NCBI GenBank assembly: GCA_002305355.1 | Contig: DBQS01000016.1 | Location: 36,279-100,278, forward strand | Direction: 5' to 3' | DNA length: 64,000 nt | DNA from: Patescibacteria group bacterium UBA1388 | GTDB lineage: Bacteria; Patescibacteriota; Microgenomatia; UBA1400; PJMF01 | Part shown: positions 625-14,643 of the stretch, one piece after another | Layout: each line of letters starts with the position of its first letter | Numbering within the stretch: the stretch's first letter is position 1 | Notes under the pieces: model-generated | The model's database searches: none | The model's input: the letters and a program-made list of their open reading frames with translations, nothing else | What the model was told of the DNA's origin: nothing | Made by a program: the position numbers and the translations under genes

Positions 625-2607
625 CTATGGAGAGTAATTGACAGTGACTGAATCAATCACTGGGGTACTGGAGCTATCCGCCGTTTCTAAAAAAACTTTA
701 TACTTAAAACATCTGCCAGGGTTTTCATAACCAGAATCATCATCATTGATAGGAATTGGCCCTTCATCTGTAAAAAATGTGGAGCTGGTTCCATCGGGAC
801 CAACAAAGATATATGATGGCTCAACGCAATTTCCGTTGACCGCATCTGCTACGGCCACTTGAAATTTTGCGCTGGTTTGATTGGGTACCATCTTATTCAT
901 CATCACATAATTAAAGGCGGTGGCATAACCAGCATCAAGATATTGAGATTCATAAGTGCCGGTAGTTGCAAATGAATCTCCGGCCCCACCTTCAATAATC
1001 TTGAACTCTGAAGTACTATCTTTGCTAACAATGTAAGAGTATGCTTCGCCATCTTGCTCTAACACACCATCAACCCCATAAACACCGGTATCTAAGTTGA
1101 GGCTGCCACACATTGTTGGATGTGATTCGTCAGTGATATCTACCACTTGATACTCTTCACCTCCAGTGCCAACAATAATTAGTTTGTTCTCGGTCACGAG
1201 TGCCAAGTCCCTGGGATTCATACCATGAGTGTCATATGTCCCAATGAGCGGAAGTGATCCGGATTTGCTAGTGGTGTCAATGATAAATAATTCCCTCATA
1301 TCCCCTGCCTCATCAGTGATGAGATATGCTCTGGTGCCAGTTTCATTTACTTCCACATCCTTACCACGTCTACTATTGACATTTGCGTATCCAACTCTTG
1401 ACAAACTTCTCGGATTAGAAACATCAATTATTTGCATTTCCCTCAAGCCAAAATCAAGCGCCACATAAGCATAATTTCCCTTCACATCAATTCTATAACC
1501 AGTTGCTGGCCACAACAAATAAGGACTCAAGTTGATTGAGTCAAGTTCGGGCAAATTGCCAGACTTATTAGTCAAGTCTACAGTGTGCAACTTGGGACCA
1601 ATCACCATATATGCCACGTTCCCAGACACATGCACTCCTTGCGCAGATCCCCACCAGTAAGTGTCATTAAAAACTGCTACCTCTTGCCCTGTTTCAAGAT
1701 CAACAACCAATAAATCTTTCGAAACGTCACCAGTCGCAATGTAAGCATAATTTTCATCAATGAAAATGTCATTGGTGTCATATCCTGCGATTTGATTGGC
1801 AATACTCACGCCAGGAGGATCATTTTGATCAATATCCATTTCTACAAATACTCCACCAGTACCATCGGTACCGCTAAAAGCCTTACCCTCAATCGCCCTC
1901 ACCACTTTAGCACGCCCTGTGCCAGGTAGGTCTAACTCGGTTCTAATGTAGTCGCTTGGTTTACACCAATTCCCTTTTCCACCAGAACCCAAAATGATTT
2001 CTCCGCCTTGATTATTTACCACCGCTGTGCCACTAGTGAATCCCTCTAAAAAATCTGCTTCACTCGTTTCGATTAAAGACAGATTGTCCAAATATCTAGT
2101 CATATAAATTACAGATGAGATCTGTGATGAGCTGGGTTGTTCCCAACTAATTTGAATGTCAATTTTTTTGATAGATGGATCAATAGTCCCACCTTCAGCA
2201 ATAATGTTTTCTGTTTCATCACGCATCACATCTGAAATAGTAAGTGCTCTTGTGAAGAGACCAGTTGTTTCTTCACCAGCCATAAGCGTCCAAGTCGATT
2301 CAGTCACTACCGGATGATAAACACCATTCGTGGCAATTGACTCCCAACTAGATTCTCTAATCACACGTAAAGCCTCCACGGTTTCAATGAGCAAACCATG
2401 CGCCTGAATTCTGTTCTGTCTTTGAGCGGAGCCTTGTTGAGAAGTAATAATTGCTCCAATTAAAGCAGGCGTAATAATTGCCATCAGGGCCATCACAACC
2501 AAAATTTCAATCAACAGTTGTCCCGAACTAGCGTTCCAGCTCTTCACAAATATTTGCCTCTGACCAGATAATTTTTGCAGAAACTTTAGATTAATTTTTT
2601 TGCGCAT
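625..2607 (-). CDS. Large (660 aa) prepilin-type protein fused to an LVIVD-repeat beta-propeller. Putative minor pilin or tip adhesin.
   Basis: N-terminus SSG|QLLIEILVVMALMAII is a prepilin motif. The body carries repeated blocks such as GNYAYVALDFGLREMQIIDVSNPRSLSRVGY, NKLIIVGTGGEEYQVVDITDESHP and LLVVDLETGQE, typical of LVIVD repeats. Confidence 0.7.
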   Translation of the reverse strand: MRKKINLKFLQKLSGQRQIFVKSWNASSGQLLIEILVVMALMAIITPALIGAIITSQQGSAQRQNRIQAHGLLIETVEALRVIRESSWESIATNGVYHPVVTESTWTLMAGEETTGLFTRALTISDVMRDETENIIAEGGTIDPSIKKIDIQISWEQPSSSQISSVIYMTRYLDNLSLIETSEADFLEGFTSGTAVVNNQGGEIILGSGGKGNWCKPSDYIRTELDLPGTGRAKVVRAIEGKAFSGTDGTGGVFVEMDIDQNDPPGVSIANQIAGYDTNDIFIDENYAYIATGDVSKDLLVVDLETGQEVAVFNDTYWWGSAQGVHVSGNVAYMVIGPKLHTVDLTNKSGNLPELDSINLSPYLLWPATGYRIDVKGNYAYVALDFGLREMQIIDVSNPRSLSRVGYANVNSRRGKDVEVNETGTRAYLITDEAGDMRELFIIDTTSKSGSLPLIGTYDTHGMNPRDLALVTENKLIIVGTGGEEYQVVDITDESHPTMCGSLNLDTGVYGVDGVLEQDGEAYSYIVSKDSTSEFKIIEGGAGDSFATTGTYESQYLDAGYATAFNYVMMNKMVPNQTSAKFQVAVADAVNGNCVEPSYIFVGPDGTSSTFFTDEGPIPINDDDSGYENPGRCFKYKVFLETADSSSTPVIDSVTVNYSP

Positions 2608-3118
2608 GCATCGCTCCTAATTGGTTAATTTCGAAATCAACTCGATCCCCAGTTGTTGAATTTTCCAAACTAAATGTATCTAAATCAGATTGATAGTTCA
2701 TGACTTCACCGCTTAACGGTAAAAATATAATTTGTCTATCAGGTATCGTCACTTCCCTAAATCTGACATCCTGAGGCAATGTCGCCACCACATTGGCGGA
2801 GTCGCTAGCTTGGAAAGTATCACCTTGAAACAAAACATATTGATCATCTCCTAAATAAACACCCTGAGGTAGTGCCTCATCGAGATTTGAATAATTGCCT
2901 TGCATGGCCTGCATTTGTTGTCTTTTCAAGTCGGAAACAAACATTTGTTGATACTCGCTGAGATTTGTTTTCGGGATTAATCCTGACAAAGAAATGCTAG
3001 AAATTGCAAACACTACTGTAAATAAGGCAAGCACAACTAATATTTCAACGAGCGTCATGCCTTTATCTTCATAAAGAATCGATCTGTGCAACCAATCCTT
3101 ACTTTTCCTGTTCATCAT
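2591..3118 (-). CDS. Type IV pilin-like protein (prepilin-type N-terminus).
   Basis: DKG|MTLVEILVVLALFTVVFAI motif. The ATGATG start at 3118/3115 gives MMNRKSKDW...; the longer ORF-track start at 3268 overlaps the kinase gene and is unlikely. Confidence 0.65.
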   Translation of the reverse strand: MMNRKSKDWLHRSILYEDKGMTLVEILVVLALFTVVFAISSISLSGLIPKTNLSEYQQMFVSDLKRQQMQAMQGNYSNLDEALPQGVYLGDDQYVLFQGDTFQASDSANVVATLPQDVRFREVTIPDRQIIFLPLSGEVMNYQSDLDTFSLENSTTGDRVDFEINQLGAMHAQKN

Positions 3119-5339
3119 TTGGGTCTTTCTTAACACTTTTTTCTTCGTGACGTTTGCGTAATTTTTTGAGTCCTTCCTCAGAATACACCGGCACTGTAAA
3201 ACTGAAAGTGGAACCTTTGCCATGACCGTCCGATTCAACCCAAATTTTCCCTCCGTGCAACTCAACAATTGATTTGCTGATGTACAAACCTAATCCAGTG
3301 CCTTGAGCTGAATCTTTGTTCGAAATGTAAGATTCTTTGAGCATACCAAATTTTTTAAACAACTTTGAAATTTGATCCCTCGCCAAACCTACTCCGGTAT
3401 CAATGACGCTGATCGTCACAAATTGTTTGGAAGCAGTTAGACATACTCTGACCTTACCTTGAGGGGGTGTGAATTTGAGTGCATTACCTATTAAATTAGT
3501 CAATACTTCAGCAATTTTATCTCGGTCTGCCATCACATCTGGTAAATCAGACATTTTCTGATGTTTAGCGGTCGGACACTCAATAGTGACCTGCACGTGA
3601 TGCGCTTCAGATCGAGGTTGAAATTCACCGACAATTTGTGACACTAATTCACCAATTTTTAGTTGGGTAATATTCAAAATAATTCTTCCTGATTCAATTC
3701 GCGAAATGTTCAACAAATCATTGATCAATTGTGACATTCTGTTGGCAGAGGCATATGCCCTATCTAAATAAAACTTTTGCTTGCGTTGCAACCTACCACC
3801 CTTGCCCGCCAAAGTCATCCAAATATAATTTTTGATTGAAACCATGGGAGTCCGCAACTCGTGAGAAGCAATTGATACAAATTCATCTTTAAGCTTGTCT
3901 AACTCCTGCAATTTTTTATTGGCAGCCAGTAATTGACTAGTAGCTCGTTCAATTTCATCCTCAAGTGTTATATTGAACCTGCGAATTTCTTCATAAGCTT
4001 TAGCATTTTCAATAGCAACTGCTGCTTGAGAGGCAATGATGTTAACTAACTTGGAGTCTCGGCTTGAAAAAGGATCGCCAGACAATTTCCCTCCCAAAGT
4101 AATTAGGCCTATTGTTTGACCCTCCTTAATCATCTCGATCACTAATTCAAACTCATATTTTTTAAAAATGTTCTGTAATTTGTTGTTGCTCAATGATTCG
4201 TAAATCATTAATTCATTGGGATGTAAAAGTTCTCCAATCTCTTTTTCATCAAGAACAGGTGTTTCGTCATACCCTTCACTAACAACCTGATATATCCCAT
4301 TTTCTTCAATTAAAATAATCATCCCTCTGTGAATTTTCATATTTTGTAACATACGTTGCAACAACTTCCGACATAAATCTTCCAGCAAGAGAGTGGATGC
4401 CATAATTAAAGTTAACTGGTGAAGCAATTCTTCGAAATCATAATAATCCTGATAAAAAATTTGATCCGTTGTTTTCGTAAGGAATTTTTTGAGTGGTTGC
4501 AGCGTAAATCCCACAGCAATAGACAAAAACACGAATATACTTGCTAAACGCAAATCTAACAAACTACCGAAAATCAAATTTGAAAACAAAAATAGAAAAA
4601 TACTTTGGAAAGTTGCAAAAATAATCAAGACTAAAAAATAGGAGACAGTTCTCGCTAGGACTGGCCTGATGTCTAAAAGTTGGTAACGACCAATGGCTGC
4701 GGCAACGGCCCCTCCTCCCAACAATAAAAATAATGGTGACCAATCAACAAACCAGGTAATATGAAAAATGAGCGGCAAAATTACCGTTGATACCAGCATT
4801 AAAATAAAGCTAATTGAAATACCGACTGCAATTAATTGCAGTTGTTGTCGCAAATAACCTTTGCTTAAACGGTATTTCCTGAACAGACTTGCTACTCCTC
4901 CCAAGATTGCACCTATCTGCAGCATCATAAATGACAACACTGCGGAACCAGCTTCGATTTGTAAAGTACCTGCTTCAATCGTAACTCTAGAAAAAATTAA
5001 TCCCGAATAAGCAAGAACAAAATTGAGCAAAACCCACAAAAAAAGAACGATTTGGATTTTCAAATTAAAAAATATTTTTTGTGTGGGAAATACTTTCACA
5101 AAACAAAAAAAGAAGGGACCAGCTGGAATGGCTGAAAATAGTATCATTTTAGAAAAGAAATCAAGGCCCATTTGAGAATTGGTATGTAAAGCTAAATAAT
5201 TAAAAATTGGGTAAAGACTAATGCAAAATAAAAGAAAAGCAAAATAGATATGAGTACCACTTTTCCTATTTTTGAGAATAATAAACAAGCCCAGTACAAA
5301 ACTGATTAAAGCAGTCAAGATGGCGATAAATAATTCCAT
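3099..5339 (-). CDS. Sensor histidine kinase: polytopic N-terminal membrane domain, GAF-like domain, HisKA, HATPase_c.
   Basis: At least 8 predicted TM helices at the N-terminus. H-box FVSIASHELRTPMVSIKNY. G-boxes GTGLGLYISKSIVELHGGKIWVESDGHGKGSTFSF. Confidence 0.8.
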   Translation of the reverse strand: MELFIAILTALISFVLGLFIILKNRKSGTHIYFAFLLFCISLYPIFNYLALHTNSQMGLDFFSKMILFSAIPAGPFFFCFVKVFPTQKIFFNLKIQIVLFLWVLLNFVLAYSGLIFSRVTIEAGTLQIEAGSAVLSFMMLQIGAILGGVASLFRKYRLSKGYLRQQLQLIAVGISISFILMLVSTVILPLIFHITWFVDWSPLFLLLGGGAVAAAIGRYQLLDIRPVLARTVSYFLVLIIFATFQSIFLFLFSNLIFGSLLDLRLASIFVFLSIAVGFTLQPLKKFLTKTTDQIFYQDYYDFEELLHQLTLIMASTLLLEDLCRKLLQRMLQNMKIHRGMIILIEENGIYQVVSEGYDETPVLDEKEIGELLHPNELMIYESLSNNKLQNIFKKYEFELVIEMIKEGQTIGLITLGGKLSGDPFSSRDSKLVNIIASQAAVAIENAKAYEEIRRFNITLEDEIERATSQLLAANKKLQELDKLKDEFVSIASHELRTPMVSIKNYIWMTLAGKGGRLQRKQKFYLDRAYASANRMSQLINDLLNISRIESGRIILNITQLKIGELVSQIVGEFQPRSEAHHVQVTIECPTAKHQKMSDLPDVMADRDKIAEVLTNLIGNALKFTPPQGKVRVCLTASKQFVTISVIDTGVGLARDQISKLFKKFGMLKESYISNKDSAQGTGLGLYISKSIVELHGGKIWVESDGHGKGSTFSFTVPVYSEEGLKKLRKRHEEKSVKKDPNDEQEK

Positions 5340-5345
5340 GCAGTG

Positions 5346-6482
5346 CTAGGGCAAATTAATCGCCTCCAAAACACTTCTGCGTGGCGTGTGAATTTCCCTA
5401 TTTACACTATACCCTAATCGAAAAAACATGTGAGGAGTAAGTTTGGGAATCCTGAAAAACGATTGCAAAAACGCTGGGTAGTTTTTGTTTTCAACCAAAG
5501 CTGCCATCGGCGTAGTGCTGATTCCAAAGTTTCGACAAACCAAAGCAACTAATTGATAAGCAATACCAGCTTGAATCCATGCCAAAATATTATTCTCAGA
5601 GCTAGCTATTAATCCTAACGCTGGTGCTGACTGTAAATTTTTAGCATCTTTGATCGACTGTATTTTCAATGGAAAAGCAAAAAACCTAATCACTATTGGT
5701 CCTAACCAAGACATCAAAAGTGGTAAACCTGAAACAAAACCGGGCATACCATCCGCTTGCTGAGTGTTGTTCGCTCGCAACCACTGGCTTAATTCTCTTC
5801 TGAAATTCTGATTCGCAGACATTTCATATGCTGCCTTCTTGTAAAGCTGAGCCAGTGTTTTAATTGTATCCCCATTTGATATAATTTTTAACTGAGATTT
5901 CGTAAATAATCTTACATAGTTGTTGATTAAATTTACAACTTGATTGGGAACAGTTTGAGAAAGATATTTCCCCTTATCTGAAAAACGTTTATCAATATTC
6001 TCAAACAGCCTACCGAGTATCATTAGTTTGGATATTTGATGATCATCTGTTGGTTTTTGAAATGAAACTTGAATTAATAATTCAAATCTTTTAACCCATA
6101 GGTCATTAACATTTGAAAAACAATTTTTAGTCTTAGTGATTCCTTGAAAATAGTTATCTTGATTAATATTTGATCTTTTCCGGTGAATTTCATAGTCAAT
6201 TTGATAACCATATGCTGCAGCAGCAACTTGTAAGTTTGTGATCATACAGCCGAGACTTATAAAAACACCCCTGTCAATGGGATCCGCGGCTGGCAGACGC
6301 AACTGATAATTTGGAGAAATTGTTAACCCGCCATCATTGACCTTTAACTTCCAAGGCTGCGTATTATGAGTTGATGGGGCAAGGATGCCCGCTTTCAAAC
6401 TTTCAGACACTACAACTGCTAATGATTTGTTGGATTGCGGTTGACGTAAATGATGCCAAGCTGCGTAATTGTGCTTATGCAT
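5346..6482 (-). CDS. Nitroreductase-superfamily (FMN oxidoreductase fold) protein with a long internal insertion.
   Basis: N-terminal ...AGILAPSTHNTQPWKLKV matches the nitroreductase APSxxNxQPW motif. C-terminal ...FFRLGYSVNREIHTPRRS matches the RLGY...PRR end of the fold. About 180 aa of non-canonical sequence lie between them. Confidence 0.6.
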   Translation of the reverse strand: MHKHNYAAWHHLRQPQSNKSLAVVVSESLKAGILAPSTHNTQPWKLKVNDGGLTISPNYQLRLPAADPIDRGVFISLGCMITNLQVAAAAYGYQIDYEIHRKRSNINQDNYFQGITKTKNCFSNVNDLWVKRFELLIQVSFQKPTDDHQISKLMILGRLFENIDKRFSDKGKYLSQTVPNQVVNLINNYVRLFTKSQLKIISNGDTIKTLAQLYKKAAYEMSANQNFRRELSQWLRANNTQQADGMPGFVSGLPLLMSWLGPIVIRFFAFPLKIQSIKDAKNLQSAPALGLIASSENNILAWIQAGIAYQLVALVCRNFGISTTPMAALVENKNYPAFLQSFFRIPKLTPHMFFRLGYSVNREIHTPRRSVLEAINLP

Positions 6483-7586
6483 TTAATTTACCTCCATCAT
6501 ATCTTCAAGATCAAATATACTTGGAAAATGAATTTTCGTTTGCTGACTAACAACCTTTTTGCGCAGGGCAATTTGTCTAACTAAAAAGGCAGTGATACCT
6601 GCGCCAACTGTCACCGAACTATACAGTTGTGGTCTACCAACCAAAGTTATTCCCAACTGGGTAACTGAGCGCTTTGCTCTAAGCGGCACATTATTTTTAC
6701 CAACTAAAGTTACCGCCAACATTTTCCGTTCATCATCGCTTAATTTTTGATTGACTATTTTATTTAATAAGGCTGCTTTCACCCTGCCATGAAAAGGTTG
6801 CAAACTTTCTAAGTCGTAACGTTCAACATCGAACAATACCGAATCACCCAAATTAGTGCACATCAAGAGAGGCAAACGGTACTTTTTCGCCATTTGTCTT
6901 AACAGGACTTTCATCGGAAAGTCATCTATTGCATCAATAAGCAATTGCGGCCGATTCTTTTCCCTCATTAATTTTTCTATTAATGTTTGAGTGGCTCTTT
7001 TCCGAATCACATTTAACTTTAAAAAAGGATCAAGCTGATATAAATCTTGAGCAACCCGCTCTGCTTTTGACTGACCAATAGCAAAGATATCGACCGGTAC
7101 ACGATTTAAATTTGATATCGAAAAATAATCATCATCACAAATTGTCATCCTCTGTGAAAAACCGCACTGGATGATAGTTTTCGCAATCACCCCGCCAATA
7201 GACATCCCAAAAATTGCAATCGGAAAGTCACGGAGTTGCAGCTGTTCTTTTGCTGAAATGAGTTTTTGATTACGGTTGGTGCGCAAAGCAAAAAAATTAT
7301 GCTCTGTAAGTAAGTGTACGATGGCATTTCTCCATGGATAATAGACCCACACGCCAATAATTTGATCTTGTTCTTTATTATCAGCTAAAAATTCTTGCAA
7401 CTTGGCTTGATTGCTTGCCACAGATGGATTAGTTATTTCAAATAATTCCCGTAGTTGGTCTTGGTAGTGATCAATTTTATTAACTTGAGGATGATGAGCT
7501 AACCATCTTGATAAGTCTTTAGGAGAGTGCGAATCAGCAGAAATTATGAAAGGTGAATATTCTGACTTCATTTGCTCATTCATCAA
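6483..7586 (-). CDS. ThiF/MoeB/E1-like adenylyltransferase-family protein with an N-terminal extension.
   Basis: IAIFGMSIGGVIAKTIIQCGF (GxGxxG Rossmann loop) followed by ICDDDYFSISNLNRV (D.D.V..SNLNRQ-type motif). There is zero-nt spacing to the downstream gene. Confidence 0.65.
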   Translation of the reverse strand: MMNEQMKSEYSPFIISADSHSPKDLSRWLAHHPQVNKIDHYQDQLRELFEITNPSVASNQAKLQEFLADNKEQDQIIGVWVYYPWRNAIVHLLTEHNFFALRTNRNQKLISAKEQLQLRDFPIAIFGMSIGGVIAKTIIQCGFSQRMTICDDDYFSISNLNRVPVDIFAIGQSKAERVAQDLYQLDPFLKLNVIRKRATQTLIEKLMREKNRPQLLIDAIDDFPMKVLLRQMAKKYRLPLLMCTNLGDSVLFDVERYDLESLQPFHGRVKAALLNKIVNQKLSDDERKMLAVTLVGKNNVPLRAKRSVTQLGITLVGRPQLYSSVTVGAGITAFLVRQIALRKKVVSQQTKIHFPSIFDLEDMMEVN

Positions 7587-7589
7587 ACC

Positions 7590-9116
7590 TTACTTCTTAA
7601 TCCATCGTTGCTTAATAATGGGGTTAAAATATTTGGGATGATGGTGTTCCCAAAAAATCACATTTGGTTCGGCCCTGCCATTAATAGTTTCATAGGTTTT
7701 TCTGTATGGTGAATTTTCAACTTTTAAAATCTCAACCAGTGTTTTCGTTACAGATTTTTTCAGTGATTTTGAACTTTTAATACCACTCTTTAACTCGACG
7801 TTAATATCTAATCTTTGATTCTGATCCCGATCATATCTGACTTCCATAGTAAATCTGCCAGTAACTGCTACCTCTAATTCGGAACGAAGTAATGCCCTTC
7901 TAATTGTTTCCGGATAAATCGTGAAACCATAAAAACTAACCGAAAAATCTCGCCTTTCGTAAACATAAACAAATGGTAGCTGCCAAACGGTATGATCTAT
8001 TTTTTCTTGTTTCGCAAGCTTCAGCAAATCTGTGCCATGTTCTTCAAAATTTTTAATCATCCTTTCAAAGGAAATTACTCTACCCCTATCTTTCAAATCA
8101 TAGCGTGCAAGTGGCAAACCACTATAGGCAGAACAAATTAAATCACCATCATCATCTTCAAAATAAAACATGTCTGGGAAAAATTGGGTTAAGGTAGGAA
8201 CACGATAGATTTTGTTAAAAACTTGATCAAAAATTACTTTGTTCAGATAAGCCTTTCTTCTTGCCAAAATTGAAAGTGGTGTTTCATAAGACATCGTACC
8301 CATATCCACCGTACCATATTGATTTAAAGTGTGCGTGAAAATATTTTCTAAGCCAGTTGCTTTCGCCACATAATCTCGAAAAGACTCACTAAATACTTCC
8401 GCCGCAAAAATAAAACCAAGGTCATATTGTTTCCACTTCAAACCCTCTCGTTTTGCTTCATCTAAAGTATCTTTGAGAAATGGTCCATAACTCCCAATAA
8501 TGATTTGATCAAAATATGGACCCAAGCGTTTGACAGCCTTAATGATTTCTGTCGCACTCACACCGGGTGTAATCACACTTAATGGATACTGTCTACTATC
8601 AGCAATGTATTTAATGGCTTGATAAGTAAACAAGCCTCCAATCCACTGCCCCATCGGAAAACCAACGATGTAGAGCGTAGTTTTCTGATCAATTTGAAAG
8701 TTTGTGAGCAAATATAATTCTGCCATTGCTGCATACTGCCAATCTTGATCCCTTTCCCTCGGAAAATAAAACGGTTCACCAGTTGATCCAGTAGTTGATG
8801 CAATTACAACTGGCTTTGAAGATAACTTACCATCCCACGATAAGGCATCAAGAGGATATTGTCTTAAATATGAGTTCTTACTAACTGGGGGTACCTTTTT
8901 AAAATCGGCAATTGTATTAATTGTGTGCGGCCTAATCTTGTGTTTACGTAAAAAATCTCGATAAGCAGGCACACGTAATGCCATCTGCTGAAATAATTGT
9001 AAAACGCGTTTGTCGCCTCTTTTTTGCCAATAATATTCTGGATTGTGTTGTAATTTGTAAAGTAATTTATTTGGTTGTAAATAGCCAGACGCTATTAATG
9101 TCCTGTTATTCTTCAT
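7590..9116 (-). CDS. PaaK-like (phenylacetate-CoA ligase / F390-synthetase family) adenylate-forming enzyme.
   Basis: ADFKKVPPVSKNSYLRQYP...VIASTTGSTGEPFYFPRERDQD aligns with PaaK DLRKFPCTTKQDLRDNYP...IHASSGTTGKPTVVGYTQNDID. The P-loop reads TTGSTGEP, with Glu where PaaK has Lys. The ATG at 9116 overlaps the upstream stop by 11 nt. Confidence 0.65.
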   Translation of the reverse strand: MKNNRTLIASGYLQPNKLLYKLQHNPEYYWQKRGDKRVLQLFQQMALRVPAYRDFLRKHKIRPHTINTIADFKKVPPVSKNSYLRQYPLDALSWDGKLSSKPVVIASTTGSTGEPFYFPRERDQDWQYAAMAELYLLTNFQIDQKTTLYIVGFPMGQWIGGLFTYQAIKYIADSRQYPLSVITPGVSATEIIKAVKRLGPYFDQIIIGSYGPFLKDTLDEAKREGLKWKQYDLGFIFAAEVFSESFRDYVAKATGLENIFTHTLNQYGTVDMGTMSYETPLSILARRKAYLNKVIFDQVFNKIYRVPTLTQFFPDMFYFEDDDGDLICSAYSGLPLARYDLKDRGRVISFERMIKNFEEHGTDLLKLAKQEKIDHTVWQLPFVYVYERRDFSVSFYGFTIYPETIRRALLRSELEVAVTGRFTMEVRYDRDQNQRLDINVELKSGIKSSKSLKKSVTKTLVEILKVENSPYRKTYETINGRAEPNVIFWEHHHPKYFNPIIKQRWIKK

Positions 9117-10161
9117 AAGATTCAATCTTTTGCAGATTAATTTCATCGGCAATAATGTGTGGCGAGCGCCTGGTTTTGGCACTAAGCTTAAAAATCTGGT
9201 CAAGCTCAGTGGCAATTGCATCCAGCTTTTTCATCATTCTGCGATGACTACGACGTGGGAACTCATACTCATCAACAACACTCATTAAACCACCGGCATT
9301 GATAATGTAGTCTGGGGTATAAAGAATATGACGCTCAAAAAGTAGATCTCCCATTTCTGAGGATGACAACTGATTGTTGGCGCCACCCGCTACTAATTGA
9401 CACTGCAGTTGCTTAACTGTTTTTTGATTAATACTACCGTACATAGCACATGGCACAAATACATCTACTGGCAAAGTAGCAATCGCTTCAGGTTTTACCA
9501 ATTCCACACGAGGATAAATTTTTTTAATGTTGGAAGTCACACTTTCTAAAACATCAGTCGCATAAATTTTTTCTGCCTCTGAGTAAAGTTGGCTGAGAAC
9601 TCCTGATCCAATTTTTCCCAAACCCTGAATGGCAAAACTCCTCTGATGCATTTCGTCATCACCAAAAACATGTTTCAAGCCCACTTTTAAGCCTTTAATA
9701 ATACCTGCCACAGTGTACTTCACAGGGTCAATTTCTCCGCCCACAACGTGTGAACTCAATTTCTTCAATTGCCGTACTTGCTGCCGACTCATGCCAATAT
9801 CTGCCCCGGTAATGAACATCCCAGCCAATAAATTAATCTGCTCCGCGTATGCTGCGGCCATGCGTGCTGTAAATTCTTCTGGGTGAGCAATAATCACAGC
9901 TTTTGCGCCACCATAAGATAAATTTCCAGCAGCTGATTTAAAAGACATTGTTTTCGATAAACGTAATACATCCCTCAGGGCTTCGACACGACTTGCATAG
10001 GGATAAATTCTAGTTGCCCCAAAAGACTTAAGTTTTTTTGAGCCACGATGAATGGCAATAAATCCTTCTAATTGTTGAGACGGTTGATTAAAGTAATGCA
10101 CGACTCGGTGTTGGTCATATTCCTCAAGATCGAGATTTGCTGTCAAACTGTTTTTTTTCAT
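9106..10161 (-). CDS. Glu/Leu/Phe/Val dehydrogenase family (leucine/phenylalanine dehydrogenase-like, NAD-dependent).
   Basis: IAIHRGS...GATRIYPYASRVEALRDVLRLSKTMSFKSAAGNLSYGGAKAVII, IQGLGKIG, DVFVPCAMYG, LVAGGANNQL and YTPDYIINAGG align motif-for-motif with Bacillus LeuDH. Both catalytic Lys positions are present. Confidence 0.85.
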   Translation of the reverse strand: MKKNSLTANLDLEEYDQHRVVHYFNQPSQQLEGFIAIHRGSKKLKSFGATRIYPYASRVEALRDVLRLSKTMSFKSAAGNLSYGGAKAVIIAHPEEFTARMAAAYAEQINLLAGMFITGADIGMSRQQVRQLKKLSSHVVGGEIDPVKYTVAGIIKGLKVGLKHVFGDDEMHQRSFAIQGLGKIGSGVLSQLYSEAEKIYATDVLESVTSNIKKIYPRVELVKPEAIATLPVDVFVPCAMYGSINQKTVKQLQCQLVAGGANNQLSSSEMGDLLFERHILYTPDYIINAGGLMSVVDEYEFPRRSHRRMMKKLDAIATELDQIFKLSAKTRRSPHIIADEINLQKIESYEE

Positions 10162-10229
10162 AGGTATTGTTAAAAAGTTTGCGACAACGTTTACTTGCTT
10201 TTTCTACCCCTAATCAGTATGCTTGGCTC

Positions 10230-10691
10230 ATGAACACATCTATTGCAACTTCAAACCCAATCGATTCGCCTCAATCTGCCAATAACAGTTATCCTACTAC
10301 AAAAAATGCAAATAGCAAAAATGGGAAGAAAATTTTGATAGCAGATGACGAACAATATATTCGGGAACTTTATGAAGAAGTATTAAGCAGTGAAGGATAC
10401 TCTGTTGAGGGAGTTTCCGATGGTAAAACAGCTCTGGAAAAAATTTCAGAGGGAGGGTGGGATCTAATTACTCTTGATGTAATTATGCCCAAGCTCGATG
10501 GCTTGGGAATCCTTACAAAACTTGAGGAAACTCCACCAAAAAAGAAAAATGGACCAATCATTTTGCTTACTAGTCTTGCCAATGACCCCGCCGTTCTAGA
10601 AGCTCAAAAAAAAGGTGCCACTCAAGTCATCATCAAAACTGATATTACTCCTAAGCAGTTGGTGGATCTGGTTAAAAAACAGATTGGTTAA
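10230..10691 (+). CDS. Single-domain response regulator (CheY-like receiver).
   Basis: KKILIADDEQYIRELYEEVL...LITLDVIMPKLDG...KKGATQVIIK. The ORF track starts at TTG 10167; ATG 10230 is the more likely start. Confidence 0.7.
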   Translation: MNTSIATSNPIDSPQSANNSYPTTKNANSKNGKKILIADDEQYIRELYEEVLSSEGYSVEGVSDGKTALEKISEGGWDLITLDVIMPKLDGLGILTKLEETPPKKKNGPIILLTSLANDPAVLEAQKKGATQVIIKTDITPKQLVDLVKKQIG

Positions 10692-10771
10692 GTAACACTG
10701 ATTATTTTAAAAATTTTTGCTGGAAATTTGGTACACTCGCTAGCTTGCTATAAATCAAAGACAAACAAATC

Positions 10772-11827
10772 TTATCTCGCGCCTACTGAGCCAATCAAAC
10801 CATAAATTGGAGCGATGATCGCCATCATCATCCCTCCCACCGCCAGTCCCACAAAAACAAGCAAGAGCGGTTCTAGCATAGCTGTCATTTTCTTTACAGA
10901 CTTACTCACCTTATAATCCATATTCTCAGATACATTTTGCATTGCTTCCTCAAGCGTGCCACTCTTCTCACCAACTTCCATTAACTTAATCATAATGCCA
11001 GGAATAATGTTCTGCTTGCTTTGTAAACCATGAGAAAAAGGATGACCAGCAACAGCTTGCTCTCGAGCTTGATCCACCAAATCTCTGACTTCTTTTTTTA
11101 AAATTACCTCCTGAGCAAGTTCTAATGAGGTGGTGATAGGGATACCAGAAGAAAGAAGTAAATGTAAACTCCGACTAAATCTGGTGATATCGATTTCACG
11201 AATTAGCTTAGAAACTCCAGGAAATGAAAATGCTATTTGTAAGATAAACTCACGTTTGGTTTGATACAAAACAAAAATAATCATCACTAACAACGCTACA
11301 ATTCCGAGTACAATTTGCCAATTGCCAGTCAAAGCGTTGGAAGTAAAGATTAATGCTTTCGTCGCCATTGGAAGAGTGACATTCAACCTTGTAAATACAG
11401 TTGAAATACGAGGAATAACAAACAATAACATACCCAACAACACGCCAATAAAAACAATCATCACGACAATCGGATAAAACATGGCTGACTTCACACCGTC
11501 AATGAATTCCATTTCTTTTTTAATATTCCCCTGCAAATCGTACAATGTTTCTTCAAGTGTACCTGCTTCTTCAGCGGCTTTAATCAAACTCACTGTGACT
11601 TTGTCGAAAGTATAAGGATATCTAGAAAAAGAGTCGGAAATTTGTTTGCCTGCAGAAATATCTTCACGCAAGGACAGTAAAATCTTTCTTTGGTTTCCTT
11701 TTGCTTCTGCGAGCAACGAGTCGACTGTTTCTGAAATAGGGATACCAGCCGACAACATCGTTTTTAAATTAGCGATTAAGCTAATTTTTTCCTCTTGCGC
11801 TAATCTAACTCTGCCGAATCCAAACAT
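10772..11827 (-). CDS. pilC: Type IV pilus assembly platform protein PilC / GspF family.
   Basis: Polytopic protein with two GspF-type repeats (GTLEETLYDLQ ... MFYPIVVMIVFIGVLLGMLLFVIPR). Lies 3 nt downstream of pilB. Confidence 0.85.
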   Translation of the reverse strand: MFGFGRVRLAQEEKISLIANLKTMLSAGIPISETVDSLLAEAKGNQRKILLSLREDISAGKQISDSFSRYPYTFDKVTVSLIKAAEEAGTLEETLYDLQGNIKKEMEFIDGVKSAMFYPIVVMIVFIGVLLGMLLFVIPRISTVFTRLNVTLPMATKALIFTSNALTGNWQIVLGIVALLVMIIFVLYQTKREFILQIAFSFPGVSKLIREIDITRFSRSLHLLLSSGIPITTSLELAQEVILKKEVRDLVDQAREQAVAGHPFSHGLQSKQNIIPGIMIKLMEVGEKSGTLEEAMQNVSENMDYKVSKSVKKMTAMLEPLLLVFVGLAVGGMMMAIIAPIYGLIGSVGAR

Positions 11828-11830
11828 GCC

Positions 11831-13525
11831 CTACTCCATTTCAGTCTTGGTCACTCTTAATACTTCTTCAATCGTGGTCATGCCCTTAGTAATTTTTTCA
11901 ATTCCATCATCAAACATGCTAGTTAATCCCTCTTTGAGGGCTTGTTCACTTATCGCATCTGCATCTGCTTTTTTGGCAATTAATTCTCGCAAATCCTTGG
12001 AAACTTCCAGAACTTCATAAATTCCAATTCTGCCCTTATAACCAGTGTTATGACACACTCGGCACCCTTGACCTCGATAAACTCTAACTTCTTTTTTATC
12101 ACCTACGGGAATGTAGTGTTTATTAATCGTTTCGAGAGAAAGATATTTTTGCAACTCTGTCACTGGTATTGTTTCTGAAACTCGACAATGTGGGCAGATC
12201 CTTCTCACCAGTCTTTGAGCTACAATCACATGCACCGTACCAGCTACTAAAAATGGCTCAACCTTCATATCAAATAACCGAGGCAACGAGGAAACTGCAT
12301 TGTTCGTGTGCAAGGTTGAGAAAACAAGATGTCCAGTCAAAGCCGCATTGATCGCAATGGCAGCGGTCTCATTGTCCCTAATTTCTCCCACAAATATGTA
12401 ATCAGGATCCTGTCTTAATAGGGACCTCAGACCATTGGCAAAAGTTAAATTTGTTTTTTCATTGACTTGCACCTGATTAGCACCTTTAATCCTATACTCA
12501 ACTGGATCTTCAATACTGGTGAGATTAGTTTCCCGCGTGTTGATCGTTTTTAGAATTGAGTAAATAGTAGTCGTTTTTCCAGATCCAGTTGGGCCGGTCA
12601 CCAAAATCATGCCGTCAGTTCTGGCAGCTGCCTTTTTAATTTTTACCAAATCTGTTTCATTAATACCTAGCTCTTCCAAAGAATAAGACCTAGCTTGAGA
12701 TGTCAACAGTCTCATCACAACTTTTTCGCCTTCTGCAATGGGAATTATTGAAACACGCAAGTCCAGTCGCTCTCCGTTAATATCCATTTTAATTTTACCG
12801 TCTTGTGCCGCTAAGTGCTGATCAGTTCTTAAGCTTGATAAAACTTTAATTCTAGTCACAATTCTACCGAGCAAGTCTTTAGGCAGACTGGCAATGTCAT
12901 GTAAAATCCCGTCAATCCTAAATCTGACCAACACCTCATCTTCATTGGGTTCAATATGAATATCTGATGCATGCTCTAAATAAGCAGCTTTAATCACTTC
13001 ATCGACCAATTTTTTAACGGGTGGATCGTGAGCAACTGTGCGCATCACTCTTCCATCTGCTTCATTCAGTAACTTACTAAATATTTCCTGAAAATCGGTG
13101 TGATAATTTAATAAGGTTTGATTTAAATCTTGTTCAGTAGCAAAAAAGATTTTGACTTGTTTGCCTGTTTTTTGGGCTACTAGTTTGGGTAAAATTTGAT
13201 TCTTAAAATCGGCTGTGGCAATACTGACATACTTTTCATCTTCTGCAAAAGTCACCATTTTATGACGTTTTGCTACCTCCTCAGGCATAATGTTCATCGT
13301 TTCATCAGAAATATTTTGTTTACTCAATTCAACAAATGGCACTTTAATTACTTCGGCAACTAACTTTCCCATAGCCTGATCGGTGGTATATCCTTTTTCA
13401 ACCAAACCATCCCAAAGACTCACATCTGTCTCTTCTGCAAATTTAGCGATTTTTTTGAGATCTGTGCGGCTGATAATTTTTTTAGCCAACAACAAATTGC
13501 TGAGTTGGGCATCAGTGAGTTGCAT
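11831..13525 (-). CDS. pilB: Type IV pilus assembly ATPase PilB / GspE family.
   Basis: GspE N-terminal domain, Walker A GMILVTGPTGSGKTTT, Walker B/Asp box and the C-terminal CxxC...CxxC zinc tetrad (CPHCR...CRVCHNTG). Confidence 0.9.
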   Translation of the reverse strand: MQLTDAQLSNLLLAKKIISRTDLKKIAKFAEETDVSLWDGLVEKGYTTDQAMGKLVAEVIKVPFVELSKQNISDETMNIMPEEVAKRHKMVTFAEDEKYVSIATADFKNQILPKLVAQKTGKQVKIFFATEQDLNQTLLNYHTDFQEIFSKLLNEADGRVMRTVAHDPPVKKLVDEVIKAAYLEHASDIHIEPNEDEVLVRFRIDGILHDIASLPKDLLGRIVTRIKVLSSLRTDQHLAAQDGKIKMDINGERLDLRVSIIPIAEGEKVVMRLLTSQARSYSLEELGINETDLVKIKKAAARTDGMILVTGPTGSGKTTTIYSILKTINTRETNLTSIEDPVEYRIKGANQVQVNEKTNLTFANGLRSLLRQDPDYIFVGEIRDNETAAIAINAALTGHLVFSTLHTNNAVSSLPRLFDMKVEPFLVAGTVHVIVAQRLVRRICPHCRVSETIPVTELQKYLSLETINKHYIPVGDKKEVRVYRGQGCRVCHNTGYKGRIGIYEVLEVSKDLRELIAKKADADAISEQALKEGLTSMFDDGIEKITKGMTTIEEVLRVTKTEME

Positions 13526-13566
13526 ACTTTTATCATATACTAAAAATTAACTAAAATGAAACTTTT

Positions 13567-14643
13567 GTTAGTCGCACATACTTTTCGGAAAATTGGTTGT
13601 AATAAATTGCACTGGTGATTGATAATTTAGTGCCATATGTGGTCGCTTGGTGTTGTACCAAGCTAAGTACTTAGTTAGTTTAACTTGGAAAGTGTTTAAG
13701 TCATAGTAGATCTCATCATTTCTGTTAATAAACTCTTCTTGGATGGTTCTGTTAAATCTTTCAACAACACCATTAATTTTGGGTGATCTAGGATAAATAA
13801 ATTGATGTTTAATTTTTTGCTTCTCCAGATACTGGTGAAATGTTTTAAAAAATTCTGACCCGTTGTCTGTTTGGACTGTATAAACTTGATGAGGCAAAAT
13901 ATTTTGGAATTCCTGAAAAGTAATTTTAGCTTGCAAGCTAGAGAGAGTGCTAACTTTCCTGACATGAGCTAGCTTTGTAAAGATATCGATACAACACATG
14001 AAGTTGTGTCGAGTGTTGTCGATATACACCACCACAGAGTCCATTTCGATATATCCTGGTTTAGTAACCTTAGGAGATCTTCTTGATCTATCTTTAGATA
14101 ATTTATTCTTTCTCTTAACTCTTCTTGGTGGATCAAAGAATAAGTTTCTTCTCCTAATCACTTTAGAAATAGTTCGACTGCTAATTGAGGGTATATTAAG
14201 CTCACCAGCATATTCATCTAAAAAGATCTTGAGTTTTCTTTCTCCAATGTTGCCATGCTGCTCTCTAAACTCACGAATAAACTGAACTAATCTCCAATCA
14301 GTCGTCATCTGTCTAACTCTCTTGGGACGAGTCTTCTTAGGTACCAGTGATAACAGAGCTTTTCCAGATTCTTCATACTTTCTTTTCCAGTCATACAAGG
14401 TAGATTTGCCAATCTTGAATGCTTGAATAGCTGATTTGTAGCCATATTTGTAGTAGTGATCTAGCACGTGGAGTCTAAACTTGGCAGGATCTGATTTATC
14501 AAAGTTAAGTGAGTTTTCAAGTGTCTTCATCAACCAATCATACTGATTGTTATATGAAAACAACTCAATATTTCGTCTAATCCCAACTCCTTGTTTAACT
14601 TTCACGACTATCTTTCCATTCCGGAAAGTATCGTGCGACATTC
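13567..14643 (-). mobile_element. IS481-family-like insertion sequence (1077 bp) with imperfect terminal inverted repeats and a 7-bp target-site duplication, AACTTTT.
   Basis: IRL is GTTAGTCGCACATACTTTTCGGAA (13567-). IRR, as the reverse complement of 14620-14643, is GAATGTCGCACGATACTTTCCGGAA. AACTTTT occurs at 13560-13566 and again at 14644-14650. A single transposase ORF fills the element. Confidence 0.75.
13568..14641 (-). CDS. DDE transposase (rve integrase core) with an N-terminal HTH, IS481-like.
   Basis: YIEMDSVVVYID...VQTDNGSEFF...INGVVERFNRT forms the D, D, E triad of the rve domain. The start codon lies inside the IR. Confidence 0.85.
   Translation of the reverse strand: MSHDTFRNGKIVVKVKQGVGIRRNIELFSYNNQYDWLMKTLENSLNFDKSDPAKFRLHVLDHYYKYGYKSAIQAFKIGKSTLYDWKRKYEESGKALLSLVPKKTRPKRVRQMTTDWRLVQFIREFREQHGNIGERKLKIFLDEYAGELNIPSISSRTISKVIRRRNLFFDPPRRVKRKNKLSKDRSRRSPKVTKPGYIEMDSVVVYIDNTRHNFMCCIDIFTKLAHVRKVSTLSSLQAKITFQEFQNILPHQVYTVQTDNGSEFFKTFHQYLEKQKIKHQFIYPRSPKINGVVERFNRTIQEEFINRNDEIYYDLNTFQVKLTKYLAWYNTKRPHMALNYQSPVQFITTNFPKSMCD

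Follow-up and report, generated by a model that had tools for sequence, protein, structure and literature searches.

The stretch of 64,000 nucleotides analyzed here, referred to as the window, originates from Patescibacteria group bacterium UBA1388 (assembly GCA_002305355.1, contig DBQS01000016.1, positions 36,279 to 100,278 of the forward strand) and carries four adjacent minus-strand genes for a Leu/Phe/Trp-type dehydrogenase, a PaaK-like ligase, a ThiF-like protein and a flavin oxidase of the nitroreductase superfamily. We propose, with a probability of about 0.6, that these genes specify a variant of the oxazolone (azlactone) pathway restricted to Patescibacteria, the candidate phyla radiation (CPR), and that this variant is encoded in one operon with a histidine kinase bearing a seven-transmembrane (7TM) sensor. 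The proposal is carried by the similarity of the ThiF-like protein and the oxidase to the two halves of a characterized oxazolone synthetase, by the linkage of the ligase gene to those for ThiF and the kinase, and by gene fusions. The core chemistry, a ThiF cyclase acting together with an Acg-like oxidase, is already known; new are the Patescibacteria as hosts, a ligase apparently replacing the acyltransferase, a dehydrogenase or aminotransferase as feeder, a hydrolase and a kinase that is nearly obligatory. No paper that ties Patescibacteria to the biosynthesis of oxazolones, to ThiF/nitroreductase or to this ligase came up in a literature search.

The ThiF-like protein and its partner oxidase

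OxzB from Pseudoalteromonas rubra, a ThiF-nitroreductase di-domain enzyme, converts N-acyl-tyrosine delivered by the acyltransferase OxzA into tyrazolones (bioRxiv 10.1101/2020.06.11.147165; PMC12596934). The equivalent conversion in M. tuberculosis is brought about by TyzB (ThiF) and TyzC (oxidase) with the acyltransferase TyzA (PMC10404671), and the substrates of both TyzB/TyzC and OxzB are N-acylated tyrosine or phenylalanine (PMC10404671; PMC12596934). Rv1355c, which is TrzS, catalyzes the ATP-dependent cyclization and then the O2-dependent desaturation of N-acyl-tryptophan; the exchange D217A abolishes cyclization and R540A impairs desaturation (PMC12856293). A first-pass annotation, made by a model from the letters and open reading frames (ORFs) of the window, had recognized the ThiF-like protein and the nitroreductase as a heterocycle-forming pair, and this is borne out. 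It had also held that neither of the two schemes it considered for the four genes, a route from amino acids to aryl-acyl-coenzyme A (CoA) and a peptide tailoring toolkit, is a described pathway. Here it has to be corrected, because the combination of a ThiF-like protein with an Acg-like oxidase has been described, namely as the oxazolone synthetase (OxzB, TyzB/TyzC, TrzS).

The window ThiF-like protein matches the NCBIfam model NF005901 ('Rv1355c family') with 240.6 bits over model positions 4–339 of 722. None of the other models for ThiF, MoeB, TcdA, Cap2 or E1 proteins exceeds 52 bits (cut-offs of the ThiF/MoeB-type models are 159–376 bits), and it is this difference that points to a module of the oxazolone synthetase type. 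When aligned with ThiF from E. coli MG1655, the window protein has Arg162 (in NLNR), Lys174 and Asp221 at the positions of Arg70, Lys83 and Asp127, residues shared by 90% or more of 64 CPR orthologs. The same alignment reveals that the zinc-binding CxxC pairs and Cys184 of the E. coli protein are missing. Asp221, which belongs to the adenylation motif, is taken as the counterpart of TrzS Asp217. We therefore propose, from sequence similarity, that the window ThiF is equivalent to the N-terminal half of Rv1355c/TrzS and is a candidate ATP-dependent cyclodehydratase closing an oxazolone ring. Among solved structures, the best sequence matches (E = 4e-10) are the PDB entries 9EGB, 9EGC and 9EGD, which are described as 'THIF-type NAD/FAD binding fold domain-containing protein' of about 265 amino acids with 7 chains; a literature search found no paper citing 9EGB or 9EGC.

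The second half of the putative synthetase is represented by the oxidase, which aligns with the NCBIfam model NF047509 for the Acg family practically from end to end (residues 29–373 with model positions 3–317 of 319; 192.2 bits, cut-off 199) and by itself aligns with the C-terminal portion of the Rv1355c model, too (58.6 bits). Its motif APSTHNTQPW (residues 35–44) in the region for flavin mononucleotide (FMN) aligns with M. smegmatis Acg and is invariant or nearly so. For the AlphaFold model (mean predicted local distance difference test score, pLDDT, 88.3; predicted template modeling score 0.89), the best match in the PDB is M. smegmatis Acg (2YMV, E = 1.9e-13, 374 columns), and 2YMV is also the reference structure reported for the oxidase domain of TrzS (PMC12856293). 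The end-to-end match and the superposition over 374 columns mean that the supposed insertion of roughly 180 residues, which had at first seemed to split the nitroreductase fold, is normal Acg-like architecture. In fact, a large lid-like insertion is carried by the monomeric flavin-dependent oxidase (FDO) subgroup (PMC10404671). Lineage-specific are a loop of about 28 residues (about 103–130, pLDDT below 50) and an N-terminal extension of 17 amino acids. Since both are also present in the closest relative of the window, locus L062, the assembly artefact that had been considered earlier is excluded. Orthologs comprise 315–382 amino acids. By sequence, we propose that the oxidase belongs to the Acg-like (FDO) subgroup, corresponds to the C-terminal half of TrzS and is a candidate Cα–Cβ desaturase.

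Distant relatives of the oxidase with about 25% identity, two of them labeled Bacteroidota, occur without ThiF alongside (L087, 5744–12569; L088, 1143–7941). They are accompanied by genes for a small ferredoxin, a pyridoxal phosphate-dependent enzyme of Cys/Met metabolism, an acetyl-CoA hydrolase/transferase and a four-subunit 2-oxoacid:ferredoxin oxidoreductase. We rejected these relatives as a guide to the window oxidase, as they form a different conserved cluster lacking ThiF, which may reflect another role for Acg-like oxidases.

The PaaK-fold ligase and its probable supply

Of the domain identities assigned initially, those of the dehydrogenase (ELFV), ThiF and nitroreductase superfamily proteins were confirmed, and so was that of the PaaK-like ligase, in this case by fold, as no Pfam family matches the protein. 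The PaaK models TIGR02155 and NF041878 score 28.3 and 33.4 bits, respectively (cut-offs 646 and 700). When the AlphaFold model (15 homologs used, pLDDT 79.6) was submitted to Foldseek, the top 18 matches were PaaK1, PaaK2 and the PaaK homolog BT_0428 (E 2e-20 to 3e-17); 2-hydroxyisobutyryl-CoA ligase (HCL) was also matched, and the amide ligase ClxA was found at rank 23 (E = 3.6e-13). The ligase shows about 15% identity to PaaK-type enzymes and exceeds them by about 70 residues in length. Invariant in 15 family members are the P-loop residues G110, S111, G113, E114 and P115, the motifs YGTVDxGT (267–274), RYDLKD (338–343) and ERxDFS (387–392), and the C-terminal K502. The first-pass annotation had pointed to the glutamate in the P-loop (TTGSTGEP) as standing where the family has lysine. 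The glutamate is real and invariant in the 15 members, but lysine is not a family-wide feature: PaaK2 has it, whereas BT_0428 has asparagine at this position. The glutamate therefore does not mean that a conserved catalytic residue was lost.

The ligase has more than 1459 homologs at 53–84% identity in a large protein collection, and a HMMER scan yielded 497 clusters at 50% identity (E ≤ 1e-30). Scanning GTDB (one genome per species) with the ligase gave 151 loci, of which 80 were listed, with taxonomy taken from the record labels. Among these 80, the informative labels name Patescibacteria (Roizman-, Gottesman-, Woese-, Woyke-, Doudna-, Magasanik-, Adler-, Kaiser-, Lipton- and Nomurabacteria, Paceibacterota and Saccharibacteria), and many other records are labeled only 'bacterium' or carry labels that we judged to be wrong. 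Clusters at 49–84% identity stand under metagenome-assembled genome titles such as 'uncultured Gammaproteobacteria', 'Polyangiaceae' or 'Pseudomonadales' (L007, L008, L011–L013, L015, L017, L024, L034, L035, L046, L051, L062, L081), and one homolog, P0014, on a contig of 3.8 kb is labeled Jordarchaeaceae archaeon. All of these are more readily taken as placeholder or mis-binned taxonomy than as real host range. Judged by its predicted fold, the ligase is an adenylate-forming enzyme of the PaaK type, and it represents a distinct family that has been found so far only in Patescibacteria.

For the analysis of genetic environments, ORFs were called in the loci and labeled by iterated profile searches seeded from the window proteins, with 20-kb neighborhoods covered. 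Counts were made for the 53 loci with full flanks. Because the ligase was the seed from which the loci were gathered, these counts tell how often ligase loci carry the other genes and not the reverse. ThiF has the ligase as its invariant partner, and in the known pathways N-acylation immediately precedes the ThiF reaction, which is why we read the ligase as the N-acylating enzyme. The odds that it is an ATP-dependent N-acyl-amino-acid synthetase in place of an acyl-CoA N-acyltransferase seem to us to be even. Among the recurrent neighbors of 82 loci, no acyltransferase of the OxzA/TyzA/TrzA type was found, a result that refers to 20-kb neighborhoods, not to whole genomes. Precedent for direct amide bond formation by a PaaK-fold enzyme is provided by ClxA (PMC12519233, PMC9400959).

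The dehydrogenase contains both Pfam domains of its family, ELFV_dehydrog_N and ELFV_dehydrog. Its best NCBIfam model is that of the tryptophan dehydrogenase ScyB (262 bits, cut-off 600), and full-length alignments were obtained with leucine dehydrogenase 6acf (188 bits) and tryptophan dehydrogenase 5b37 (187 bits), the lysine motifs K-x-x-A and GG-x-K being in register with both. On these grounds it is classified as an NAD-dependent ELFV enzyme of the Leu/Phe/Trp type, closest to leucine and tryptophan dehydrogenases, with scores that leave the substrate specificity undecided. Its gene lies directly upstream of the ligase gene in 39 of the 41 loci that have it. This adjacency, together with fusion of the two in two proteins, makes it most likely that the dehydrogenase product is a ligase substrate. 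In other loci, a class I/II aminotransferase (PF00155, 228 bits), usually encoded right upstream of the ligase and in divergent orientation, takes the place of the dehydrogenase. The full-flank loci contain the dehydrogenase in 32 cases, the aminotransferase in 18 and both in 1, so that one or the other is present in 49 of the 53. As the reaction common to both enzymes is the interconversion of amino acid and 2-oxo acid, it is this step that the pathway would need, and not NAD chemistry as such.

A conserved unit with a sensor kinase

The head-to-tail arrangement of four minus-strand enzyme genes, as originally described, is reproduced by the six-frame ORF listing (Table 1), and the junctions could be read directly from the sequence: an 11-nt overlap between the dehydrogenase stop and the ligase ATG, a gap of 3 nt between the ligase stop and the TTG of ThiF, and a gap of 0 nt between the ThiF stop and the ATG of the oxidase. 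Such tight coupling exceeds chance, with a median gap of 3 nt between co-directional genes in 82 related loci and 232 of 302 junctions not exceeding 20 nt. As a cassette of four genes, however, the unit had been drawn too small. While the enzymes were correctly grouped, a histidine kinase gene downstream, which starts 6 nt after the oxidase stop, and a divergent receiver gene belong to it. The unit comprises six genes, with the four enzymes as its core, and is conserved across the ultra-small Patescibacteria. Within the window, no gap inside the operon is larger than 6 nt, and scans of the cassette for promoter and terminator consensus sequences gave no more sites than shuffled sequence.

ThiF is encoded in all 53 full-flank loci, the 7TM kinase in 52, the oxidase in 43, the receiver in 37 and an α/β-hydrolase, or a probable divergent one, in 18. 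This linkage is kept even though gene order is reshuffled, for example to ThiF-dehydrogenase-ligase-oxidase or to oxidase-dehydrogenase-ligase-ThiF-hydrolase. Furthermore, the ligase is fused to the dehydrogenase (P0186), to ThiF in either order (ligase first in P0166 and L033, ThiF first in P0263) and to both (dehydrogenase-ligase-ThiF, P0264). Other fusions join ThiF to the oxidase, the oxidase to the hydrolase and ThiF to the hydrolase. One fused ThiF-oxidase protein (761 amino acids, locus L002) scores 381.5 bits with NF005901 over positions 11–645 of 722 and 229 bits with the Acg model. Co-occurrence and fusion support one functionally coupled, conserved cassette, and the contents of the ligase loci are at odds both with independently conserved housekeeping genes and with a lack of co-occurrence, findings by which the first-pass annotation would have been overturned. 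That ThiF is encoded in every full-flank locus and forms one polypeptide with the ligase in several proteins argues that it works in the pathway of the ligase.

The window itself is devoid of an α/β-hydrolase gene. Where such a gene is present, it immediately precedes the kinase gene (19 of 19 loci) and is often fused to that of the oxidase; C-C hydrolases and 3-oxoadipate enol-lactonase are among the families that its product matches best. Since oxazolones belong to the activated cyclic esters, we speculate that the hydrolase opens the oxazolone ring or transfers it. In four loci, the hydrolase position is held by a protein of 260 amino acids (L004, 11762–12544; L031, 12594–13376; L035, 9289–10053; L033, 6769–6957) that has no Pfam or NCBIfam match, features an invariant GGMSGG together with an invariant Asp and His, and aligns weakly by profile with the α/β-hydrolase at the nucleophile elbow (hhalign probability 33%). 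From these residues, it is probably a divergent Ser-Asp-His hydrolase.

In all 52 loci that contain it, the 7TM kinase gene is located downstream of and co-directional with the cluster, and every cluster-linked kinase aligns over the same N-terminal 7TM sensor (residues 1–300). Six other kinase ORFs or fragments in the flanks and three short ORFs inside clusters do not have this sensor. The cluster kinases fall into two length classes, one of about 540 amino acids that lacks GAF and one of about 725 that contains it. According to the Pfam scan, the receiver protein has no output domain; its true start is probably Met22 at position 10230, as the TTG at 10167 would leave only 5 nt to the dehydrogenase start. 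All 59 cluster-adjacent regulators consist of a receiver only (120–174 amino acids), and the two-component system is therefore unlikely to be merely a transcriptional switch of the operon. A bactofilin gene (product of about 160 amino acids; PF04519, 92 bits) follows directly downstream of the kinase gene in eight loci, several of them labeled Magasanikbacteria (L020, L034, L044, L045, L053, L063, L081, L085). In a complete Saccharibacteria genome (L060, CP064992.1, about 8700–15800), aminotransferase, oxidase and kinase are each present as two adjacent ORF fragments, so this cluster may be decaying or the assembly may contain frameshift errors.

Table 1. Genes of the conserved unit and its surroundings in the window (positions count from the first nucleotide of the window)
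Feature	Position	Strand	Basis and remarks
Third prepilin-like gene	62–571	minus	downstream of cassette
660-aa LVIVD-repeat protein	625–2607	minus	prepilin-like, pilin-like N-terminus; downstream of cassette
Prepilin-like gene	2591–3118	minus	N_methyl motif; downstream of cassette
746-aa sensor histidine kinase	3099–5339	minus	Pfam HisKA_7TM, GAF, HisKA, HATPase
Nitroreductase-like oxidase	5346–6482	minus	six-frame ORF listing and translation
ThiF-like gene	6483–7586	minus	six-frame ORF listing and translation
Ligase	7590–9116	minus	start is Met36 of a longer ORF, 7590–9221
Dehydrogenase	9106–10161	minus	six-frame ORF listing and translation; first gene of operon
Stand-alone receiver	10167–10691	plus	Pfam Response_reg, residues 56–169; divergent from dehydrogenase
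PilC-like T2SSF	10772–11827	minus	upstream of cassette
PilB-like T2SSE ATPase	11831–13525	minus	upstream of cassette
rve-family integrase/transposase	13568–14641	minus	helix-turn-helix and rve_3; overlaps end of polymerase gene
Y-family DNA polymerase	14595–15923	minus	ImpB/MucB/SamB

In the window, the cassette is embedded among type IV pilus genes, and its closest relative L062 is arranged alike. A pilin-like gene is nearby in only 11 of 83 loci, however, and PilB/PilC in only 4 of 83. With so few loci carrying them, pilus genes are a lineage-specific neighborhood outside the unit, and type IV pili were rejected as a functional part of it. On the upstream side of the pilus genes, the adjoining rve-family element could represent an insertion sequence. 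Over the window as a whole, the guanine plus cytosine (GC) content varies between 35 and 44%, GC skew is negative in every 2-kb segment but one, and neither tRNA genes nor Rfam families (gathering threshold) were detected in the 64 kb.

Proposed pathway, alternatives and known systems

Gene order and fusions suggest an order of steps. The dehydrogenase, or elsewhere the aminotransferase, would interconvert a hydrophobic or aromatic amino acid and its 2-oxo acid and thereby supply one substrate of the ligase, which in turn would adenylate a carboxylic acid and couple it to an amino acid through the amino group of the latter. The carboxylate of the resulting N-acyl amino acid would be adenylated by ThiF, with the amide oxygen closing the 5(4H)-oxazolone ring, and the Acg-like flavin oxidase would then desaturate the Cα–Cβ bond. 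For these two reactions we rely on homology to TrzS, TyzB/TyzC and OxzB, and we are quite confident that ThiF and the oxidase act on a small substrate resembling an N-acyl amino acid. Where present, the α/β-hydrolase may open or transfer the reactive ring. Finally, the co-transcribed 7TM kinase would sense the product and signal via receiver-only regulators and not via a DNA-binding regulator. Genomic context is what suggests the supply and ligation steps, the hydrolase and kinase steps and the identity of the product.

Several points weigh against this scheme. About 10 of the 53 loci lack the oxidase and 4 of 53 lack both dehydrogenase and aminotransferase, so that these steps must be dispensable there or supplied in trans. 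Many Patescibacteria inhabit anoxic settings, whereas the characterized oxidases of this kind use O2. As PaaK does, the ligase could form a thioester with CoA, and the genome could encode an acyltransferase outside the 20-kb neighborhoods and the 64-kb window that were covered. With the Rv1355c model, the window proteins and their fused relatives do not reach the equivalog cut-off (381.5 versus 476 bits for the L002 protein); for this reason the substrate may differ from N-acyl-tryptophan, and by these scores the enzymes are to be regarded as close relatives of TrzS and not as equivalogs. As for the kinase, its 7TM sensor is only moderately conserved and shows no clear signature of a polar pocket, no ligand is known for HisKA_7TM, and adjacency by itself does not make the pathway product the ligand of the kinase. 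We put forward such a ligand role tentatively, at somewhat worse than even odds.

More tentative still, and on balance unlikely, is the wider idea that the cluster serves dedicated chemical signaling in CPR bacteria, in which an oxazolone built from a scavenged amino acid, or the N-acyl-dehydroamino acid derived from it, would be the cognate ligand of the HisKA_7TM kinase and the receiver-only regulators would act on cell behavior, for instance on pili or attachment. A signaling role of oxazolones has been suggested by their discoverers (PMC12856293; bioRxiv 10.1101/2020.06.11.147165), who term their physiological role in bacteria 'a major unresolved question' (PMC12856293). If the idea is true, the first oxazolone receptor would be assigned, along with the first ligand of a HisKA_7TM sensor and a candidate signal between cells or between episymbiont and host. 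The linked kinase is a concrete receptor candidate that makes oxazolone function testable. Patescibacteria have reduced genomes with few assigned small-molecule pathways, and their lifestyle probably depends in some way on a unit of six to seven genes that is conserved across loci labeled Microgenomates, Parcubacteria and Saccharibacteria. The ligase would provide a CoA-independent route to the ThiF substrate, which would be of interest to enzymology and biocatalysis, and the public labels 'phenylacetate-CoA ligase', 'nitroreductase' and 'ThiF/MoeB' probably misstate the function of these genes.

A serious alternative to a signal is an effector: the oxazolone-type or N-acyl-dehydroamino acid product could be antimicrobial, host-directed or membrane-active, and the two-component system would only control or accompany its production. 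The evidence from enzymology is identical for both, antimicrobial N-acyl tyrosine derivatives and stress-linked oxazolone production have been mentioned (PMC12856293; bioRxiv 10.1101/2020.06.11.147165), and in loci of the Microgenomates type, to which the window belongs, type IV pilus genes surround the cluster. On the other hand, the 59 adjacent regulators, none with a DNA-binding output, are poor candidates for operon control, a co-transcribed downstream kinase that always has the same sensor is what a synthase paired with its receptor would be expected to look like, and neither an exporter nor an immunity gene is found among the conserved neighbors. An effector therefore appears rather unlikely to us, if less so than amino acid catabolism or salvage linked to a two-component system, which we deem improbable. 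In that case, the amino acid would be converted to the 2-oxo acid and a derived acid to acyl-CoA by a true PaaK-like ligase, while ThiF and oxidase would be accessory or unrelated. The neighborhood of dehydrogenase and ligase is indeed the most stable adjacency, the closest structures to the ligase are CoA ligases (PaaK, HCL), and JGI labels its relatives phenylacetate-CoA ligase. The conserved neighbors, however, include no decarboxylase, 2-oxoacid oxidoreductase or paa genes, the scores with the PaaK equivalog models are far under their cut-offs (at most 33 bits versus 646–700), and no role is left for ThiF despite its presence in every full-flank locus and its fusion to the ligase in several proteins. 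The aryl-acyl-CoA route envisaged by the first-pass annotation is likewise conceivable for the dehydrogenase-ligase pair alone and leaves ThiF, oxidase and kinase unexplained.

Two further explanations shift the ThiF reaction from a small molecule to a protein or peptide. ThiF could be a protein-directed E1 enzyme acting on a sulfur carrier, a ubiquitin-like protein, the kinase or the regulator in housekeeping, conjugation or defense; besides generic similarity to ThiF/MoeB/E1 proteins, there are weak matches (at most 40 bits) to the E1 domain of E1-E2 defense proteins in PADLOC. We consider this very unlikely, given that a conserved ORF of the size of ThiS, MoaD or a ubiquitin-like protein is absent, as are E2 and JAB partners, that the CxxC pairs and Cys184 are missing, and that the ThiF, MoeB, TcdA and Cap2 models lie far below the Rv1355c model. 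A defense system was rejected as well, as PADLOC returned those generic E1-domain matches for ThiF and none for the other enzymes. Least probable of all is the tailoring of a peptide that is made on the ribosome and modified after translation (RiPP), with the E1-like protein and an FMN dehydrogenase forming azoles or azolines on a precursor as in thiazole/oxazole-modified microcin (TOMM) systems, where an E1-like protein is also paired with a protein of nitroreductase fold. ThiF-like enzymes in RiPP pathways have been reviewed (PMC12596934). No YcaO is encoded among the conserved neighbors, in keeping with what had been noted for the window. The lack of an obvious precursor peptide was also confirmed: when ORFs of 18–95 amino acids outside labeled genes were clustered for 82 loci, nothing recurred except shadow frames, by which a precursor peptide and a small carrier protein were both rejected, and the window gaps of at most 6 nt leave the same picture. 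In addition, the nitroreductase is of the Acg/FDO type, ThiF is of the Rv1355c type with an intact ATP site, and the characterized relatives use N-acyl amino acids, not peptides. The toolkit reading of the four genes is thus very unlikely.

The oxazolone pathway remains the preferred reading, and its closest known counterpart is TrzAS (Rv1356c-Rv1355c), which forms N-acyl tryptazolones in M. tuberculosis, M. smegmatis and R. jostii RHA1 (PMC12856293). The window ThiF and oxidase correspond to the N- and C-terminal halves of TrzS, some CPR relatives are fused like it, the Asp of the adenylation motif and the FMN-region motif are conserved, and 2YMV is the best match of the oxidase. Unlike TrzS, the window genes are split and the scores are below the equivalog cut-off. 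Furthermore, CPR loci have a PaaK-fold ligase and a dehydrogenase or aminotransferase but no acyltransferase of the TrzA type, a hydrolase is often added, a 7TM histidine kinase is co-transcribed where M. tuberculosis has genes for c-di-GMP turnover alongside, and the hosts are Patescibacteria instead of Actinomycetota. With OxzAB and TyzACB, the cluster shares a ThiF-like cyclase and a nitroreductase-superfamily flavin oxidase, fused (OxzB) or adjacent (TyzB/TyzC), that act on a small N-acyl amino acid. It differs in that the ThiF/FDO subclusters of these systems are distinct from TrzS according to the papers, whereas the window is nearest to the Rv1355c model, in the class of the N-acylating enzyme and in the kinase linkage, which has not been described for OxzAB/TyzACB. 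Held against what characterizes an oxazolone synthetase, the window offers an intact ThiF adenylation site and an adjacent (0-nt gap) or, in relatives, fused Acg-like oxidase; an adjacent acyltransferase of the OxzA/TyzA/TrzA type and a score of 476 bits or more with the Rv1355c model are wanting.

The ligase has the fold (PaaK1, E = 2e-20), the adenylation motifs and the C-terminal catalytic lysine in common with PaaK, HCL and ClxA, but in contrast to PaaK it fails the PaaK models, is not part of a paa operon, has an invariant P-loop glutamate and is obligately linked, or fused, to ThiF and the dehydrogenase. E1 enzymes of the ThiF/MoeB sulfur-carrier type differ from the window ThiF by their CxxC pairs, by Cys184 and by a small carrier, for which no ORF is found nearby in the 82 loci. 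TOMM systems (McbBCD, SagBCD) resemble the cluster in combining an E1-like protein with an FMN enzyme of nitroreductase fold, ring formation being followed by oxidation. They depend, however, on YcaO and a precursor peptide, neither of which is found among the conserved CPR neighbors, and the E1-like docking proteins of TOMM systems are not known to have the ATP-site residues that the window protein keeps. CqsA/CqsS, LuxM/LuxN and AgrBDCA are circuits composed of an autoinducer synthase and a polytopic membrane kinase. Although the CPR enzymes and the HisKA_7TM sensor are unrelated to theirs and the partner regulators are receiver-only, the layout is alike: biosynthetic genes are co-transcribed with a multi-pass membrane sensor kinase that lacks a large extracytoplasmic domain, and the genetic linkage to such a kinase that typifies a synthase-receptor circuit is found in 52 of 53 loci.

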